From: a virus
Strand: one strand, 5' to 3'
UHGV virus genome: UHGV-0466892
Length of the DNA: 41,858 nt
Under the pieces are notes generated by a model. The model saw only the letters and a program-made list of their open reading frames with translations. It made no database searches and had not been told where the DNA came from. Shown here piece by piece: positions 22,687-41,807 of the stretch. The position numbers and the translations under genes are program-made. Position 1 is the first letter of the stretch. Each line of letters opens with the position of its first letter.

Positions 22687-22967
22687 TAGTGCCTCAGATG
22701 ATCAACCAGGCGTGCAACGTTGCCTCTGACGGCCACCAGCACGGAAAGAAAAATAGTATTCGCCACGATAATGGGCCATGAGGAATGGGGATAAATCCCA
22801 CAGAGATAGGCCAACGGAACAGCACTGTATGTAACAGTAATCAGCCAGGCTAAACGTGAAACCCAAGGACGATGCCGCGAATCACCACGACGATAAAACA
22901 TCAGAGTAATAACAACACAAGCACATAACAGCGCGTTTATAGTTGCTGTCGGGTCATTTAGCTCCAC
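22686..22967 (-). CDS. holin/antiholin-like membrane protein
   Basis: 93 aa with 2-3 hydrophobic helices, between the first holin and the endolysin. Confidence 0.55.
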   Translation of the reverse strand: MELNDPTATINALLCACVVITLMFYRRGDSRHRPWVSRLAWLITVTYSAVPLAYLCGIYPHSSWPIIVANTIFLSVLVAVRGNVARLVDHLRH

Positions 22968-23340
22968 CTGAACCTCCCCGGCGCGTTATGAGCGCCACCA
23001 GCGACCCGATATCCTGATTATTCAGGAACGTCAGGATCTTAACGGCTAAAGCAGATACGATTACGGCACCAATGGCATCCAGAGGTTTATCACTGTATCC
23101 GGTCAAGCTTGCCAGCTTGGAGCCAACCAACCCAGAGCAAAGGATCCCGGCAATATACGACACGATAAAATATGCCAGTCGGCGCGATGCGCTCAGATCC
23201 GCTGCTGTTGCTATGTAGAATACAGTCCCTGCAAATGCGCCAAATACAACGCCGTAATCAGTTCCGGTCAGCAGTCCATAAACACTGGCACCCGTCAGGG
23301 CACCACCAGCCAGCCCAGTACCGGAAATTGGATCGGACAT
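22954..23340 (-). CDS. holin
   Basis: 128 aa, glycine-rich with multiple transmembrane segments; first gene of the lysis cassette. Confidence 0.6.
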   Translation of the reverse strand: MSDPISGTGLAGGALTGASVYGLLTGTDYGVVFGAFAGTVFYIATAADLSASRRLAYFIVSYIAGILCSGLVGSKLASLTGYSDKPLDAIGAVIVSALAVKILTFLNNQDIGSLVALITRRGGSGGAK

Positions 23341-27135: not shown

Positions 27136-27288
27136 ATTTATGTTCTCCCTTCGAGCGACTAACAGACGCGATTAAAGATTGTCGGCAGCAGCATCAGAGG
27201 GTTACGCAAATTGCGGTATTCTGATAAATGCGCGCCAGCCTTAAGCGCAATTCTAATAAAACCAGTCGTCAGCGCTTTCCCAGGTTTC

Positions 27289-27486
27289 CTAGAGGATGGA
27301 TTCGATTTTCTTTTTATCGTCCTTGTCTCCACCGAAAACACTTAACCCATCGGACCCGGCACGGCGGATTGTGAGCCTGCAATTGTCATAGTGATCATTC
27401 AGGCGCTTAAGCAATTCTTTCTCCAGTGCTGGTACCGCGCCTTTAGGAAGTTCTTTCATGCGATCAATGGTTAATTCAACTTTCAT
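27289..27486 (-). CDS. dinI: DinI-like SOS-regulated protein
   Basis: MKVELTIDRMKELPKGAVPALEKELLKRLNDHY... resembles DinI; start set at the second ATG, which has a GGAGG Shine-Dalgarno; LexA box just upstream. Confidence 0.7.
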   Translation of the reverse strand: MKVELTIDRMKELPKGAVPALEKELLKRLNDHYDNCRLTIRRAGSDGLSVFGGDKDDKKKIESIL

Positions 27487-31810: not shown

Positions 31811-31875
31811 TAAACCACAGATTTATACTTCATGCAAACTTTGGATTTATTGCGTGCATAAACCAAATATTTACA
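31811..31875. promoter_or_regulatory. OR-like operator cluster with divergent promoters
   Basis: Three related 15-17-bp sites: TAAACCACAGATTTATA (31811-31827), AAACTTTGGATTTATT (31836-31851), TAAACCAAATATTTACA (31859-31875), about 24 bp apart, between the cro and cI starts. Confidence 0.6.
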
Positions 31876-31883
31876 ATGACCAT

Positions 31884-32273
31884 ATGAGAAAAGAAGAACC
31901 CAACCTCGTTCTGGTGGAGCGCCTTACTGAGATCACTGATCGCGGCGTTACCAAAGCAGACATGGCAAGAATAGCTGGAGTCACCCCTCAGGCCGTAAAC
32001 GGCTGGTTCAAAAAAGGCGTGATTAGTAAGAAATCGGCACTGGCCATAGCCGACGCTGTTGGTATTTCTGTCGCCTGGCTACTCGGTGAAGACGTTGGGG
32101 AGAAAGACGGTCTCAAACCGGACGAACAGCGTTTGCTCGAGCTCTACCGCCAGTTACCGGAAGAAGAGCAGCAGAACATGCTCCGCATTTTTGCGCTTCG
32201 CCTGAAAGAGTTAGATGAGCTGTACGAGAAGTACATGAAGGGTCGGATTCGATCGCAAGGTGAGCAAACCTAA
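31884..32273 (+). CDS. cI: CI-like repressor (XRE-family HTH)
   Basis: Start set at ATG 31884 (MRKEEPNLVLVERL...); HTH segment GVTKADMARIAGVTPQAVNGWFKKG; divergent from cro across the operators. Confidence 0.7.
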   Translation: MRKEEPNLVLVERLTEITDRGVTKADMARIAGVTPQAVNGWFKKGVISKKSALAIADAVGISVAWLLGEDVGEKDGLKPDEQRLLELYRQLPEEEQQNMLRIFALRLKELDELYEKYMKGRIRSQGEQT

Positions 32274-32337
32274 ACCAGTAGTATCTAATTCCATGTAATA
32301 AAAATATTTCAAGATTTAATATCTTCTGGAGGATTCG

Positions 32338-32619
32338 GTGTCTAAAGAAACAACCGTCGAACTTATGCATCTTAATGATGTAATCGAAGCGAAAAATTTC
32401 ATCGAGACCAATGCTGACGGTGTCGTAACAATCGGCACACAAAATGCCGGTTACGAAGTTTACAATTTTGTGTTCCTGAATAGCAGCCCGATCATCGGTA
32501 CGGATAATGCGGATATAGTCGTCAAGGGCATGCAGCGAACCAAAGTTGTGTCTGTGACTTTAAGCAAACAAAAGGCTTATGATTTTTATCAATCCTTAAA
32601 AAGTATGTTTGAGGAATAA
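32338..32619 (+). CDS. hypothetical protein co-transcribed with cI
   Basis: 93 aa; GTG start with GGAGG Shine-Dalgarno; no recognisable motif. Confidence 0.5.
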   Translation: MSKETTVELMHLNDVIEAKNFIETNADGVVTIGTQNAGYEVYNFVFLNSSPIIGTDNADIVVKGMQRTKVVSVTLSKQKAYDFYQSLKSMFEE

Positions 32620-32622
32620 TAA

Positions 32623-33147
32623 TTGATGGATGCGGCTCAATCATCTCTTGGTGAAGGGAAGTTATTGATTGCATATTCAGACCATAGCGGAGCTACAGTA
32701 GGCTTAGAGTTTTCATCAGTAGCTTCGAGCCAAGCAACCTTCCTTATGGGTGCTTGTAGTTTTGCCGCTTCGGATAAACAAAAACGGATTGTCACATCAG
32801 TTGCTATGGATGATACTGAAATCATTCATACGTCAACTGAAGATGGAGGTGACGACATGGAAAAGAGATTGGCTATTCTTGAGGTTGAAGTTGCCCACAT
32901 CAAGAAAGATGTTGCCGAGATAAAAAACACAGTTTCAAAAGTTGATACGACAGTGAATTCACTGGACAAAAATATGGCTGTAGTTTTGGAGAGGCTGTCT
33001 AGTATCAAAGAGTCTGTAGACAAAAAGCCCTCATCAGACACAGTGGACAAGAAAATCTCTGATGCTAAATTGGCGATTCTCTTAGGTGTCCCTGCGATTA
33101 TCGCCATTGGTACAGGGCTGTACAAAGCTTTTATGCACTTCTTTTAG
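32623..33147 (+). CDS. tail-anchored coiled-coil membrane protein (XhlA-like C-terminal half)
   Basis: 174 aa; N-terminal ~75-aa domain, then coiled coil (MEKRLAILEVEVAHIKKDVAEIKNTVSKVDTTVNSLDKNM...), then C-terminal transmembrane helix LAILLGVPAIIAIGTGLYKAF. Confidence 0.5.
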   Translation: MMDAAQSSLGEGKLLIAYSDHSGATVGLEFSSVASSQATFLMGACSFAASDKQKRIVTSVAMDDTEIIHTSTEDGGDDMEKRLAILEVEVAHIKKDVAEIKNTVSKVDTTVNSLDKNMAVVLERLSSIKESVDKKPSSDTVDKKISDAKLAILLGVPAIIAIGTGLYKAFMHFF

Positions 33148-33220
33148 TCAGATTTGGTCAATACGCCTGAGTTATAAGGCTCTCAGCTACTAACTCTGTC
33201 GCCTTCCCCGAACCTTCTCA

Positions 33221-33246
33221 TCCCGACCACGCGTCGGGATTTTTTT
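33221..33246 (+). terminator. rho-independent terminator ending the cI operon
   Basis: cccgac cacgc gtcggg followed by a run of eight T. Confidence 0.8.
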
Positions 33247-33285
33247 TGCCTGCGATTCTGCAGACGTGTCACAAAACCCAGCCAC

Positions 33286-33349
33286 ATAAACCTCAGATTT
33301 ACAATTAACACTAACCTTAAGTTGACATGTATATAAACCAGTGATTTAA
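33286..33349 (+). promoter_or_regulatory. pL-like promoter with OL operators
   Basis: TTGACA (33321-33326), 17-bp spacer, TTTAAT (33344-33349); operator-like sites TAAACCTCAGATTTA (33286-33300) and TAAACCAGTGATTTA (33333-33347) share the OR consensus. Confidence 0.6.
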
Positions 33350-33602
33350 TCTAACTCACCAAGACGCACCACGAACCACCCAGGCATGGAGCCCACGAAG
33401 TAGCCGTCCGGGGCATACGAAAACCGGAATGAGGTGGTGATATTAACGCGCAGTAGGTTTGAAACGTTCCGCCAGCCTGGCGACAAGGGCAAACACAGAA
33501 GTGAGCTTCGCGGTGGTGAATTGCAGAGTTAAAACGCTCAACTGTGAAGATCAGCGTCACGGCACCACCAGCGAAGTTCACTCAGCAATAGTGGAGAACA
33601 TC

Positions 33603-33809
33603 ATGGTTCATCAGCACTACGGTACACAGACAGTAAACCGCGGCGCAGTTCAGCCGGGGATGCTTGTAAAACACAAAGACTCAACCTGGACCGCATCTGC
33701 TAACGCACGCGGTCGCCTGTATCTTCACCGTGGCATCGAACGTACCTACACCAAAGATTTGCTGGTTGAGGTTTATCTAAACGGTTTAGGACATGGCCTT
33801 AGCCATTAA
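33603..33809 (+). CDS. small early protein (hypothetical)
   Basis: ATG 33603 with GGAGA Shine-Dalgarno; 68 aa; first ORF after the pL leader. Confidence 0.4.
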   Translation: MVHQHYGTQTVNRGAVQPGMLVKHKDSTWTASANARGRLYLHRGIERTYTKDLLVEVYLNGLGHGLSH

Positions 33810-33820
33810 CGGAGTGAGTT

Positions 33821-33982
33821 ATGCAGGAGAAAAAATGCGCGTACTGCCGCAAGCCGATCAAGCAAGGGAAGGAAGTTAAAAACGAACTGCTCTTTATCCA
33901 CGGCACGCAGTTGAAACGCGAGCAACGTGATTACTGTTCAGTACGTTGCGCTTCGTTCGACCAGATGGCCCACGAAGCATAA
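33821..33982 (+). CDS. small zinc-ribbon protein (53 aa)
   Basis: Not in the ORF track (under 60 aa). ATG 33821 with GGAGTGAG Shine-Dalgarno; MQEKKCAYCRKPIKQGK...DYCSVRCASF contains CxxC ... CxxxC. Confidence 0.4.
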   Translation: MQEKKCAYCRKPIKQGKEVKNELLFIHGTQLKREQRDYCSVRCASFDQMAHEA

Positions 33983-34120
33983 CGAAAACCCCGCGCAAGG
34001 CGGGATTCACGTCCGGTGCCACCGACCAAAGTTACACCGGAATTTATACCAAACCAAAAAACATCCAATGGGCGCTATCTCTGGCCCGGGGATTCTAACA
34101 CTCAAAAAAGAGGATCTCAC

Positions 34121-36955
34121 ATGGAATTTTTCCATCTGATAAAAGCCAGTCAGAAGTCTGGCAAGAAAGATGCAGTGATTTGGTTCACTGCGAAAAGTGT
34201 AGCGCGCGCCAATCTCCAACTCGATGTGGCACTGGAAGAAGCCGGAATTGAAGAAACTGGCCGCGGTAAAGATTATGCCAAACCAATCCGCACCGATTTC
34301 CCGGTATATGACGACCTGCCGGAAGAAGGCGCAGTGGATTACACCTGGTGCAAACGCTACGAACTGCAGAACGATGACCGCACCTGGCTGCCAAAAGTCA
34401 CAGCTGAAAACTCTGACGAGAAAACGGCTCAGACCGTTGATAGTCACATAACTACTGAGTCAACGCTGCCAGAAACCGCTGGCATCACGCTGGACGAACA
34501 CGACGACGACTCAACCCTCTACCCGGTAGTGCAGATGCCGTTTCGTAAGCAACTGCTTTCCCAGTTCACCGCCGACGAACTGCGCCACCACGTAACCCGC
34601 GAAGAGTACGAAGCTATCGGCGCGCTGGAGATGGACACTGATAACAGTTACGTCCAGAACTTGCTGTTAGCTGCTGAGAACTGCCCGGAAGTGAAGGGTT
34701 ACGACACCAAAGACCTGTGGCGCTACACCGATGCCATTCGCAAAGTGTTCAGCCAGGACAAGCGTCACGAACTCGCGCTGGTACTCCGTTTCACCAGAAT
34801 GTGGGCGGCGACTGATTACATTGACCGTGGCATCCTGGCGCGTGAATGGGCTGCCGGTAATCACATCAGTAGTGTTCAGCGCACTGACGCAGGTACCAAT
34901 GCCGATGGTGGATATGTCACCGACCGCGGCGAAGGTGCGCATCACACGCTGGACACACTGGATCTGGAGATCGCCTGTGCCCTGCTGCCGATGGATTTCA
35001 ACCACCTTGAGATCCCGGGCAGCATTCACCGTCGCGCCAAAGAAATCGTGGCGAAAAAAGAAGAGCCCTGGAAATCATGGAGCGCCCTTCTGCGTAACCA
35101 GCCTGGCGTTCTGTCGGTAAACCGTGCGGCCATTTTCAACCTGGTACGGATCGCACCGGAAAACATTCATCGTACGCCGGCGGCCCATCTGGAGTTCGTT
35201 AACCAGACCATGACCGCTGAGTTTAACGCCGCAACTGAACTGATGCCCCTGCGCGCGTCCGCGGTTCAGACGCAAGTAGAGGTTGAGGAACCAACAGCTC
35301 AGCCGCAGGTCGCGAACCTCGGCGGTGGCATGTTCTCCATCAATGGCCTGTTGAGTGGAAATACTAACCCGGTCATCAATATTCCCTCAAATGAAGCAGA
35401 AAAACCGGAAACCGTAGTGGAGACCACCAGCGATGTGCAGATGGAAGCGACTCAGCCAGAGAAAGACAAAACTGTTGATACGGTACCACCAGGCGAAAGC
35501 GCTGATGCAACTGATCCGCAAACAGATACCCTGAACCCGGCTGAGGTGCTCTCCGCCGCGGCGCCGGAGCTGGCGAACGCCACTACGCAGGAATTGACCA
35601 CCGAAGCATCAGAGGAGAAAGCGAGCGCGCCGGAAGAGCAACCTTCACAACCGGTCCCGGAATACCCGGCGTACTTCGAACCGGGCCGCTATGAAGGCGT
35701 GCCGAATGACGTTTATCACGCGGCGAACGGGATCAGTTCCACCCAGGTGAAGGATGCCAGGGTCAGCCTGATGTACTTCAACGCGCGCCACGTCGCCAAA
35801 ACTATCCCGCGGGCCCCTTCCAAGGTGCTGGACATGGGTAATCTGGTTCACGCCCTGGCGCTGCAGCCTGAAAACCTTGAGGCAGAGTTCAGCGTGGAGC
35901 CGGAGATCCCGGAAGATGCTTTTACTACCACCGCCACCCTGCGCGAGTTCATCGATTCGCACAACGCCACCCTGCCGGCACTGCTGAGCACTGACGATAT
36001 CAAAGCGCTGCTTGAAGAGCACAACGCCACCCTGCCCGCGCAGCTGCCGCTGGGCGCCAGCCTGGAGGAAACGGCCCAGAGCTATATGGCTTTGCCGGCA
36101 GAGTACCAGCGCATCGAGCCAGACCAGAAGCAGACCGCAGCAGCTATGAAAGCCTGCATCAAAGAGTACAACGCCACCCTGCCCGCGCCGGTTAAAACCA
36201 GCGGCAGCCGCGATGCGCTGCTTGAACAGCTGGCAATCATCAACCCTGACCTGGTGGAGCAGGAAGCCCAGAAGCCGGCACCGCTTAAGGTGTCCGGCAG
36301 CAAAGCGGAAATGATCCAAGCGATTAAGTCGGTTAAACCCGATGCCGTATTCGCCGACGAGCTGCTGGACGCCTGGCGAGAAAATCCGGGCGACAAGATT
36401 CTGGTGACGCGCCAGCAGCTGGTGACCGCCCAGGCCATCCAGTCGGCCCTGCTGGCACACCCGACCGCAGGCATGCTGCTAACCCACCCGAGCCGCGCCG
36501 TTGAGGTGAGCTACTTTGGCTTTGACGAGGAGACGGGACTGGAAGTTCGTGTGCGCCCTGACCTTGAGATCGACCTAGACGGCGTGCGTATCGGTGCTGA
36601 CCTGAAAACCATCAGCATGTGGAATGTTAAGCAGGAAAGCCTGCGCGCCAGGCTACACCGGGAAATTATTGAACGTGATTATCACCTGAGCGCGGCTATG
36701 TACTGCGAAACCGCAGCGCTGGATCAGTTCTTCTGGATTTTCGTCAACAAAGACGAGAACTACCACTGGATCGCCATCATCGAGGCATCCGCTGAACTAC
36801 TGGAGCTGGGTATGCTCGAGTACCGCAAAGCGATGCGCAATATCGCAACCGGATTCGACACAGGTGAATGGCCAGCGCCAATCACTGCTGACTACACCGA
36901 CGAACTGAACGACTTCGACCTGCGCCGCCTTGAAGCGCTGCGTACTCAGGCATAA
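34121..36955 (+). CDS. RecE-like 5'-3' exonuclease (exodeoxyribonuclease VIII-like, C-terminal PD-(D/E)xK domain)
   Basis: Start set at ATG 34121 (AGAGGA Shine-Dalgarno); ~944 aa; acidic low-complexity middle with repeats; C-terminal VRPDLEIDLDGVRIGADLKT fits PD-(D/E)xK; immediately followed by an annealing-protein gene. Confidence 0.55.
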   Translation: MEFFHLIKASQKSGKKDAVIWFTAKSVARANLQLDVALEEAGIEETGRGKDYAKPIRTDFPVYDDLPEEGAVDYTWCKRYELQNDDRTWLPKVTAENSDEKTAQTVDSHITTESTLPETAGITLDEHDDDSTLYPVVQMPFRKQLLSQFTADELRHHVTREEYEAIGALEMDTDNSYVQNLLLAAENCPEVKGYDTKDLWRYTDAIRKVFSQDKRHELALVLRFTRMWAATDYIDRGILAREWAAGNHISSVQRTDAGTNADGGYVTDRGEGAHHTLDTLDLEIACALLPMDFNHLEIPGSIHRRAKEIVAKKEEPWKSWSALLRNQPGVLSVNRAAIFNLVRIAPENIHRTPAAHLEFVNQTMTAEFNAATELMPLRASAVQTQVEVEEPTAQPQVANLGGGMFSINGLLSGNTNPVINIPSNEAEKPETVVETTSDVQMEATQPEKDKTVDTVPPGESADATDPQTDTLNPAEVLSAAAPELANATTQELTTEASEEKASAPEEQPSQPVPEYPAYFEPGRYEGVPNDVYHAANGISSTQVKDARVSLMYFNARHVAKTIPRAPSKVLDMGNLVHALALQPENLEAEFSVEPEIPEDAFTTTATLREFIDSHNATLPALLSTDDIKALLEEHNATLPAQLPLGASLEETAQSYMALPAEYQRIEPDQKQTAAAMKACIKEYNATLPAPVKTSGSRDALLEQLAIINPDLVEQEAQKPAPLKVSGSKAEMIQAIKSVKPDAVFADELLDAWRENPGDKILVTRQQLVTAQAIQSALLAHPTAGMLLTHPSRAVEVSYFGFDEETGLEVRVRPDLEIDLDGVRIGADLKTISMWNVKQESLRARLHREIIERDYHLSAAMYCETAALDQFFWIFVNKDENYHWIAIIEASAELLELGMLEYRKAMRNIATGFDTGEWPAPITADYTDELNDFDLRRLEALRTQA

Positions 36956-41205: not shown

Positions 41206-41807
41206 TGACACAGGCAAAATTAAACAGTGAATTTATTGCCACAGTAGCGGGTGATATTACCGTCTATAACTATGACAACACGACACGGGAATACATTTCA
41301 TCATCAACAGAATATCTTGCCGTTGGCGTCGGTATCCCGGCATGTTCTTGTTTAGATGCGCCAGTTACACATAAAGCTGGTTATGCAATCTGCCGTTCTG
41401 CAGATTTTAACTCATGGGAATATGTGCCAGACCATCGCGGTGAAATCATCTATAGCACCGAAACAGGAGAATCGAAAGAAATCACAGCTCTGGGTGATTA
41501 CCCTGAAAATACAACCACTATCGCCCCGTTAACGCCATATGATAAATGGGATGGTGAGAAATGGGTGACGGATACTGAGGCACAGCATAGCGCCGCAGTA
41601 GAAGCGGCAGAAGCACAGCGCCAGTCACTGATTGATGCAGCAATGGCTTCCATTAGTCTGATTCAGCTGAAATTACAGGCCGGACGTAAACTTACGCAGG
41701 CAGAAACAACCAGGCTTAACGCTGTGCTGGATTACATTGACGCGGTGACGGCAACAGATACCAGCACCGCGCCGGATGTCATCTGGCCTGAACTGCCGGA
41801 GGTGTAG
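41205..41807 (+). CDS. tail fiber assembly protein (alternative Tfa)
   Basis: 200 aa; C-terminus ...TDTSTAPDVIWPELPEV is a typical Tfa ending; ATGA-coupled to the fiber cassette. Confidence 0.85.
   Translation: MTQAKLNSEFIATVAGDITVYNYDNTTREYISSSTEYLAVGVGIPACSCLDAPVTHKAGYAICRSADFNSWEYVPDHRGEIIYSTETGESKEITALGDYPENTTTIAPLTPYDKWDGEKWVTDTEAQHSAAVEAAEAQRQSLIDAAMASISLIQLKLQAGRKLTQAETTRLNAVLDYIDAVTATDTSTAPDVIWPELPEV

Follow-up and report, generated by a model that had tools for sequence, protein, structure and literature searches.

The window analyzed here is the viral genome UHGV-0466892 at its full length of 41,858 nucleotides (nt). Its positions 32338-33246 carry two genes, here designated A and B, which directly follow a repressor gene on the plus strand and end at an intrinsic terminator. 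The two open reading frames (ORFs) had been pointed out in a first-pass annotation made from the sequence alone, and the ORF list confirms them. Public sources label the products of A and B 'hypothetical', 'putative membrane protein' or 'SlyX'. Here we present a description of both genes, of the slot that they occupy and of their relatives in other phages and prophages, together with the arguments for a candidate role in the exclusion of other phages from a lysogen.

Gene A (32338-32619, plus strand) starts with GTG and encodes an acidic (pI 4.9), soluble protein of 93 amino acids (aa); its Shine-Dalgarno (SD) sequence GGAGG lies at 32328-32332, 5 nt before the start. PGAP/RefSeq call an 85-aa product from ATG 32365; however, the first eight residues of the longer form are kept in homologues from eight other sources, with an ATG or GTG start at the same place, and so the 93-aa product is taken as correct and the 85-aa call as too short. 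Hydropathy analysis found neither a hydrophobic transmembrane (TM) segment nor a signal peptide in protein A. An AlphaFold2 (AF2) model with a predicted local distance difference test (pLDDT) value of 75 shows a three-strand beta meander followed by a C-terminal helix. Protein A belongs over its full length to phrog_12039 (1.6e-47), a family annotated as 'unknown function'; a scan of A against PADLOC-DB 2.0.0 gave zero matches, and a PDB sequence search with A gave none.

Gene B (32626-33147, plus strand) starts with ATG and encodes 173 aa in its long form, as supported by matches to phrog_12602 and phrog_3556, by alignment, hydropathy and AF2 secondary structure. The stop of A is separated from B by 6 nt to ATG 32626, or by 3 nt to TTG 32623; the membrane-protein ORF had been recognized in the first pass, although the length of 174 aa given there counts from the TTG. 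Protein B consists of an N-domain (residues 1 to about 50), a linker that runs to residue 77 and ends in DGGDD, a coiled coil (78 to about 131), a KKPS hinge (133-136) and a TM segment (147-165). From residue 78 on it follows the canonical a/d heptad pattern with a hydrophobic spacing of 4-3-4-3, and AF2 predicts, with low confidence, helices at 78-131 and 138-172 that are interrupted at KKPS. The TM segment (AKLAILLGVPAIIAIGTGL; codons at 33064-33120, plus strand) is the sole hydrophobic segment of the protein, with a Kyte-Doolittle 19-residue mean of 1.96. It is rich in small residues and ends 8 residues from the C-terminus, and LLGVPAIIAIGT is invariant in the alignment of type-I modules. 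The short tail past the TM segment and the lysines ahead of it indicate that B is a tail-anchored protein with its bulk in the cytoplasm, as is A. The earlier description of a soluble 93-aa protein followed by one with an N-terminal domain, a coiled coil and a single C-terminal TM anchor is thus borne out by hydropathy, alignment and predicted secondary structure.

Protein B is a member of phrog_12602 (2.7e-54), and its C-terminal half matches phrog_3556 (3.6e-28); both families are annotated as 'unknown function'. Scans of A and B against Pfam, PADLOC 2.0.0 and NCBIfam 20.0 yielded nothing past threshold. B draws only coiled-coil noise in these scans (SlyX, FlaC, Lpp, LmuB, IcmG), with SlyX (PF04102) reaching 24.5 bits under a gathering threshold of 30 bits and the PADLOC-DB 2.0.0 matches of B lying at 12-16 bits (LmuB, DruC, JetA). 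A PDB sequence search with the C-terminal module of B, described below, returned generic coiled coils only. The profile homology search proposed in the first-pass annotation therefore ends in phage families of unknown function, in agreement with its statement that neither protein matches a defense family that could be named. The XhlA-haemolysin-like architecture suggested there is a real resemblance that stays below threshold. In B, as in XhlA, a coiled coil precedes a C-terminal TM segment (alignment, AF2 secondary structure, hydropathy), and PHROG 937 ('hemolysin') matches B at 1.4e-5; the best XhlA (PF10779) score is 25.0 bits, obtained with a distant member of the module family, against a gathering threshold of 34.7 bits, and XhlA is absent from the Pfam list of the window B at E <= 1.

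The upstream repressor gene (31884-32273, plus strand) encodes, according to Pfam, NCBIfam and the RefSeq annotation, a short helix-turn-helix (HTH) protein of 129 aa that is DicA/RacR-like (Pfam HTH_3 1.5e-6, Phage_CI_repr 8.6e-4; NCBIfam DicA subfamily 1.9e-8, under the cutoff of that model). Because it is short and without an S24 peptidase domain, the earlier term 'CI-like' holds for its position and role only; and because it has no S24/LexA-like cleavage domain, induction cannot run via RecA-stimulated autocleavage of the repressor itself. The spacer between the repressor gene and A (32274-32337, plus strand; 64 nt, AT-rich, including the SD sequence of A) contains neither a terminator-like nor a promoter-like site according to the promoter and terminator scans. 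The repressor-A-B unit is closed by an intrinsic terminator at 33220-33248 (plus strand), with a stem at 33220-33240 of 8 bp, including 5 GC pairs, followed by T8. The strong terminator noted in the first pass is thus real. The pL-like promoter lies after it (plus strand; TTGACA at 33322-33327, 17 nt, TTTAAT at 33345-33350). A pattern search found four exact matches to the operator-like motif TAAACCNNNNATTTA in the window (31811, 31859, 33287 and 33334), with 0.55 expected by chance. One pair (TAAACCACAGATTTA at 31811-31825 and TAAACCAAATATTTA at 31859-31873; together 31811-31873) lies in the divergent promoter region between a ydaS/cro-like gene and the repressor gene and is OR-like. The other, OL-like pair (33287-33301 and 33334-33348) flanks and overlaps the pL-like promoter, the whole spanning 33287-33350. 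With operators on both sides and the terminator, the order repressor-A-B-terminator lies between OR-like and OL-like operators, as does cI-rexA-rexB in lambda. In the lysogen, A and B would be expressed from the 3' end of the repressor transcript. The G+C content of the A-B cassette is about 0.40, versus 0.50-0.62 on both flanks.

The location of the cassette, on the strand of the repressor gene and flanked by OR and OL, also bears on the view that B might assist lysis when the prophage itself enters the lytic cycle, as XhlA does for the PBSX holin. The sub-threshold likeness to XhlA and to the 'hemolysin' PHROGs speaks for that view, which we nevertheless consider very improbable: the position is silent after induction, the lysozyme and lysis protein genes of the prophage are about 12 kb from the cassette (RefSeq annotation), and none of the contexts examined has a holin or endolysin gene as a neighbor. 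A role in a lysis cassette was rejected on position.

The same arrangement recurs elsewhere. A and B follow the repressor in phage HK544, in the Stx1 prophage VT1-Sakai/Sp15 of O157 Sakai (ECs2991/ECs2992) and in phiSTEC801-Stx1a, with protein identities of 74-75% for A and 55% for B. HK544 is annotated with the repressor, PRM and PL of lambda itself, and its A+B pair occupies the rexAB slot of lambda; the VT1-Sakai record has a 'terminator for pRM transcript' annotated directly after the B homologue. With no terminator before the genes, one after them, a low G+C content and the same slot in HK544, the earlier reading of a two-gene, moron-like cargo cassette in the rexAB slot of the immunity region stands. 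More divergent A+B pairs, flanked by genes for an S24-type CI and for N, were found in Cronobacter, in an Erwiniaceae genome and in metagenomic contigs (the identity of A to the window A falls there to as low as 31-33%); two more copies lack an evident adjacent repressor. Regarding viral contigs, 13 of the 15 unique contexts place the cassette directly 3' of an S24 CI (of several kinds), a short HTH or a Mnt-like ribbon-helix-helix repressor, and the remaining two place it in the tail-gene region. Across Enterobacterales the repressors that precede the pair belong to several unrelated types, and a specific partnership with one repressor was rejected for this difference in type. A review of lysogen transcriptomes (PMC7067206) treats the repressor-to-N interval as a moron site of mosaic character, in which accessory genes such as rexAB and bstA reside. 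At locus L032 (3096-3424), an Enterobacter-type prophage, two extra small ORFs, one of them encoding a hydrophobic product of 63 aa, lie between the short repressor gene and A.

Among 5,426 complete E. coli genomes, the window allele occurs in 13, the HK544/Sp15 allele in 93 and a cassette with an 87-aa partner protein in 205, all annotated as 'hypothetical protein'; the cassette family is present in about 5-6% of these genomes. One of the 13 carriers of the window allele, E. coli KL53 (L069, NZ_CP030919, 3347-4931), has an IS3-family insertion in B at about window position 32982, which reduces the product to 119 aa, with loss of the TM segment, and represents a natural knock-out. A search of the literature on HK544, ECs2991/ECs2992, the accessions and defense in the cI-N slot found a proteome listing and no functional study; an earlier screen may have recovered the cassette. 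Four WP_ accessions, including the RefSeq identifiers of A and B, are not listed in the supplements of DefensePredictor. A link to the Tai system via HK544 was dropped, HK544 being merely a challenge phage in the Tai paper. The proteome listing concerns ECs2991, the A homologue of Sp15, which was detected in O157 cells from a culture in rumen fluid (PMC3936929); it supports the earlier expectation of expression in the lysogen in an indirect manner.

That detection would also suit a lysogenic conversion unrelated to phages, in which a tail-anchored coiled-coil protein alters the membrane or stress physiology of the host or serves as a scaffold, with A as a cofactor. We regard this as unlikely. 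Host stress proteins of the ElaB/YqjD/YgaM class combine a cytoplasmic coiled coil with a C-terminal anchor, and distant relatives of the module occur in non-phage chromosomal contexts; however, there is no sequence match to the families of that class, and residence in exclusion slots together with the swapping of partners and N-termini described below is the pattern expected of arms-race genes.

A second slot is represented by the P22-like Salmonella phage UPF_BP1 (L024, NC_047875, 2975-3947), in which a B-type cassette (94 aa + 149 aa) follows mnt and precedes gene 16; in P22, orf59a and sieA occupy this place. The partner protein of UPF_BP1 is 95% identical to the partner found after cI in E. 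coli prophages, and its B shares the N-terminus with the B of these prophages and has a different C-terminal end. As the UPF_BP1 cassette is in the sieA position and a near-identical partner is found after cI, it is, judged by sequence, one cassette pool that feeds both the rexAB slot of lambda and the sieA slot of P22. The label 'partition protein ATPase' on the mnt homologue of UPF_BP1 appears to be a mistake inherited from the annotation of the P22 record.

The exact replacement of sieA by a B-type cassette in a P22-like phage raises the alternative of a non-abortive superinfection exclusion at the envelope, in which inner-membrane B together with A would block the entry of phage genomes, as do P22 SieA, HK97 gp15 and T4 Imm, and the cell would survive. 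An inner-membrane protein encoded in the immunity region would be in keeping with this, as would the copies that are morons in tail-gene regions, the position also held by HK97 gp15. The topology of the proteins fits less well: only about 8 residues of B follow the TM segment, which leaves almost nothing in the periplasm, where ejection proteins act, and A has neither a signal peptide nor a TM segment. The dual-start design and the XhlA-like module would in addition better suit a controlled membrane lesion, and we consider a SieA-like block of entry improbable.

An alignment of 21 B relatives showed a conserved C-terminal module and unrelated N-termini. The module runs from a Gly-rich linker through the motif M-x-x-R-(L/I/V)-A-x-L-E-x-(D/E)-V-x-H-I-K and a coiled coil to an invariant K-P-S and the terminal TM segment. 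A profile of the module was compared with 1.84 billion representatives (clusters counted at 50% identity, multi-stretch coiled-coil giants disregarded); the same layout was seen in about 50-60 true single-stretch clusters, whose members measure 90-185 aa. Matches of module variants to phrog_3556 reach 1.9e-58, and those to XhlA and the 'hemolysin' PHROGs (937, 1193) all stay below threshold. A different N-terminus of B goes with a different upstream partner gene, and the same module occurs with four unrelated partner types. The partner is an 87-91 aa protein in E. coli and Salmonella and a 139-156 aa protein in Klebsiella and others, and a further type has 119 aa and two CxxC pairs; no similarity was found between the window A and the 87-aa partner. 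In 13 A+B pairs the divergence of A follows that of the B N-domain (pairwise identity r = 0.93), not that of the C-terminal module (r = -0.09), and one N-domain was seen with three different C-terminal ends. From this co-divergence and the exchange of C-terminal ends, A and the N-domain of B are, as far as alignments can tell, one evolutionary unit and the module is another, joined at the Gly-rich linker. This mosaic build, the repressor without a LexA-like cleavage domain and the conserved internal start described below go beyond what the first-pass annotation had noted.

The partner family of 139-156 aa (copies at L008 3565-3999, L049 3469-3897, L054 3444-3863 and L057 1622-2092) occurs with B proteins whose N-terminal extension is no more than a short, Gly-rich tail. 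Its motifs are ...Y.L.V.V.F.G..VL... and PG.Y(D/E)(I/V)..., and its only match in Pfam is a weak cupredoxin-like one. A stand-alone module protein of 97 aa, partnerless and with nearly no N-terminal extension, is encoded at L065 4001-4294. Its gene lies on the opposite strand between the P2-like tail genes gpD and gpX/gpU, with a gene giving a weak Pfam match to 'Imm_superinfect' nearby.

The tight coupling of a small acidic A to a downstream membrane protein, with gaps of 3-6 nt or overlapping stop and start codons, and the co-divergence of A with the N-domain of B are also what a toxin-antitoxin-like addiction module or switch of the prophage would show. A would then neutralize membrane-toxic B, and the toxin would act once transcription from the repressor promoter stops, upon induction or loss; such a module might stabilize the prophage or aid the transition from lysogeny to lysis, as proposed for RexAB. 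The disruption of B by IS3 in one of the 13 E. coli carriers is compatible with a cost of the gene. The cassette is, however, paired with unrelated repressors (S24 CI, short HTH, Mnt) and hence not bound to one switch, and neither protein is homologous to known toxin-antitoxin families. Many toxin-antitoxin-like pairs act as abortive-infection systems, so that the idea overlaps with the explanation favored here; as a separate explanation it appears quite unlikely to us.

The position of the recombination joint in B is also that of a candidate internal ribosome-binding site and start (32845-32859, plus strand). The window codons GAT GGA GGT GAC GAC ahead of ATG 32857-32859 (codon 78) supply GGAGG at 32845-32849 and a spacer of 7 nt. 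The predicted short isoform (32857-33147, plus strand) has 96 aa and a pI of 8.9 and comprises the coiled coil and the TM segment only. An SD core (GGAGG, GGGAG or GGGGG) was found 5' of the module start in all 24 unique upstream contexts (20 distinct peptides), and the last such core ends 7 nt before the start codon of the module in 21 of them. The module starts with Met throughout, except in one lineage with Val, where the codon is GTG and GGGAG is again located 7 nt upstream. Variants with a Gly-Ser peptide still hold GGGAG in their DNA, and GGA is the first codon in just 21% of the Gly-Gly pairs of 339 long ORFs from the same loci. Gene callers often choose the internal start, the 96-aa call (P0092) being present on 280 contigs, and the internal start accounts for their disagreement on B, for which products of 96, 113, 133, 143 and 173 aa are given. 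The 96-aa form is probably made alongside the 173-aa form, an assessment that we hold with somewhat better than even confidence.

We give an even chance to the explanation that A and B constitute a mobile cassette of two genes for exclusion or abortive infection that is expressed in the lysogen and combines a swappable specificity part with a holin/XhlA-like membrane effector. The points that lead to it are the position in the rexAB and sieA slots, an expression that appears tied to the repressor, a varying, co-diverging specificity part next to a constant module, the XhlA/holin-like architecture and the probable dual-product design; slot position and architecture make exclusion or abortive infection the candidate function. 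The most likely job of the cassette would then be to exclude other phages. B would sit in the inner membrane as a tail-anchored protein with its bulk facing the cytoplasm, and its C-terminal module (coiled coil, KKPS hinge, TM segment) would oligomerize and act as the effector, which, being holin/XhlA-like, could damage or depolarize the membrane. The module would be made in two forms, a long one with the variable N-domain and a short one of 96 aa from the internal SD sequence and ATG. A may bind the N-domain of the long form, the two forming the swappable specificity or control part. In the uninfected lysogen, mixed oligomers of long and short forms with A bound would be inert; a product of an incoming phage would act on A or on the N-domain and release the membrane activity of the module. 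The outcome would be an aborted infection, as with lambda RexA/RexB, and the control by two products would resemble that of P22 SieB/Esc or lambda S107/S105.

Several observations weigh against this explanation. Some family members lie outside repressor slots (tail-region morons, chromosomal contexts), and the protein detected in the O157 proteome is a 75%-identical homologue from another prophage, in a study not designed to exclude spontaneous induction. Comparison with PADLOC (2023), Pfam, NCBIfam (2026), PDB and BFVD gave no sequence or fold match to known defense proteins, and the likeness to XhlA lies under the Pfam cutoff in a class of sequences, coiled coils, that draws spurious matches. 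A fused A-(GGGGS)6-B model made by AF2 with a paired alignment reached a pLDDT of 39.5 and thus gives no structural support for a contact between A and B. Regarding the internal start, Gly-Gly codons are inherently G-rich, and 3-29% of the synonymous recodings per sequence pair equally well with the anti-SD sequence, so that the SD signal is convincing only across lineages, which are not independent. The invariant Met occupies a core position of the coiled coil, although, unlike this one, the remaining core positions are variable (L, I or V). The anti-phage function of the cassette is accordingly that of a candidate, based on position and architecture.

A wider reading, which we put forward tentatively and consider doubtful as a whole, is that A and B belong to a large, so far unnamed family of prophage immunity cassettes with a modular build. 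Each would consist of a swappable sensor (the partner and the matching N-terminus of B) and a coiled-coil effector, tail-anchored and common to all cassettes, whose translation would occur within the long form as well as separately, from the ribosome-binding site in the Gly-Gly linker. The balance of isoforms would arm an abortive membrane lesion, and the cassettes would serve the rexAB slot in lambdoid phages and the sieA slot in P22-like phages. Should the cassette exclude phages, it would represent a new defense family in common prophages of E. coli, Salmonella, Klebsiella, Enterobacter and Cronobacter, including the laboratory phage HK544 and the well-studied Sp15. The plug-in design of a variable sensor and a constant membrane effector, if true, might reveal the way in which phages swap specificity, and the conserved internal start would offer a clear example of a linker in a protein, here one of glycines, whose coding sequence also acts as a ribosome-binding site.

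The region described is 100% identical in 12 complete E. coli chromosomes. In strain ECCWS199 it is part of a Rac-like lambdoid prophage integrated beside kch, which contains an integrase, RecE/RecT, YdaE, a KilR-like gene, replication genes of the O/P type and, at a distance, a lysis cassette; YdaS/YdaT occupy the cro/cII positions. PGAP calls the repressor as a 140-aa product from GTG 31854. Its start is ambiguous (ATG 31884 or GTG 31854), and GTG 31854 overlaps an operator-like site. The sequence TTGCGT-16 nt-TACAAT within 31850-31884, which is absent from the list of the promoter scan, ends 6 nt 5' of ATG 31884, so that the repressor mRNA could be leaderless; the pRM transcript of lambda is leaderless. 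The C-terminal stretch GLKPDEQRLLELYRQLPEEEQ of the repressor is also found in other short repressors ahead of B-type cassettes (L032, L057, L060). A fifth operator-like copy, TAAACAGTGAATTTA at 41221-41235, has one mismatch, lies far from the immunity region and is probably a chance match. Located 3' of the pL-like promoter are a KilR-like FtsZ-inhibitor homologue (33603-33809; 62 bits, under the NCBIfam cutoff), a YdaE-family gene (33821-33982) and a gene for a RecE-family exonuclease of 979 aa (34016-36955); no N-like antiterminator gene is present among the genes between the promoter and the exonuclease gene. The RefSeq annotation of the prophage includes genes for tRNA-Thr and for an unusually long 'tRNA-Ile' of 92 nt (window positions about 22966-23040 and 27240-27331).

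Among known systems and families, PHROGs 12039, 12602 and 3556 are those to which A, B and the C-terminal module belong, and their label 'unknown function' offers no clue to the mechanism. XhlA (PF10779; PHROGs 937 and 1193), the membrane protein of the PBSX lysis cassette, resembles B in having a short coiled coil ahead of a C-terminal TM segment; it differs in that scores are sub-cutoff, the cassette is never found beside a holin or endolysin gene, and an extra N-domain and a partner gene are present. Judged by gene order and alignment, the tight coupling and co-divergence of A and B would be compatible with a type II toxin-antitoxin system. The mycobacteriophage Sbash proteins gp30 and gp31 are a repressor-adjacent, lysogen-expressed pair of a cytoplasmic and a membrane protein for which a Rex-like function has been proposed; they and similar two-gene defenses of prophages belong to different hosts and are not known to be homologous to A or B, and their likeness to A+B is one of general description. 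P22 SieA is an inner-membrane protein whose position between mnt and gene 16 is held by the B-type cassette in UPF_BP1, but it shows no sequence similarity to the cassette and is encoded by one gene instead of two. In P22 SieB/Esc and lambda S107/S105, as is predicted for B, one reading frame gives a long and a short membrane protein; in the P22 annotation, esc is an internal product in the frame of sieB whose role is protection from self-exclusion. Neither is homologous to B, and the two starts are 77 codons apart in B, 24 in sieB/esc and 2 in lambda S. The closest parallel in position is lambda RexA/RexB, with the same slot 3' of the repressor gene and before the terminator and pL, the same strand as the repressor, a proposed expression in the lysogen together with it, and a soluble protein paired with an inner-membrane protein. 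No Rex family is among the Pfam, PHROG and PADLOC matches of A or B, and the architectures differ: RexB is polytopic, with four TM helices, and RexA has about 279 aa, whereas B has a single hydrophobic segment (147-165) after a long coiled coil, a partner of 93 aa and a probable internal start.

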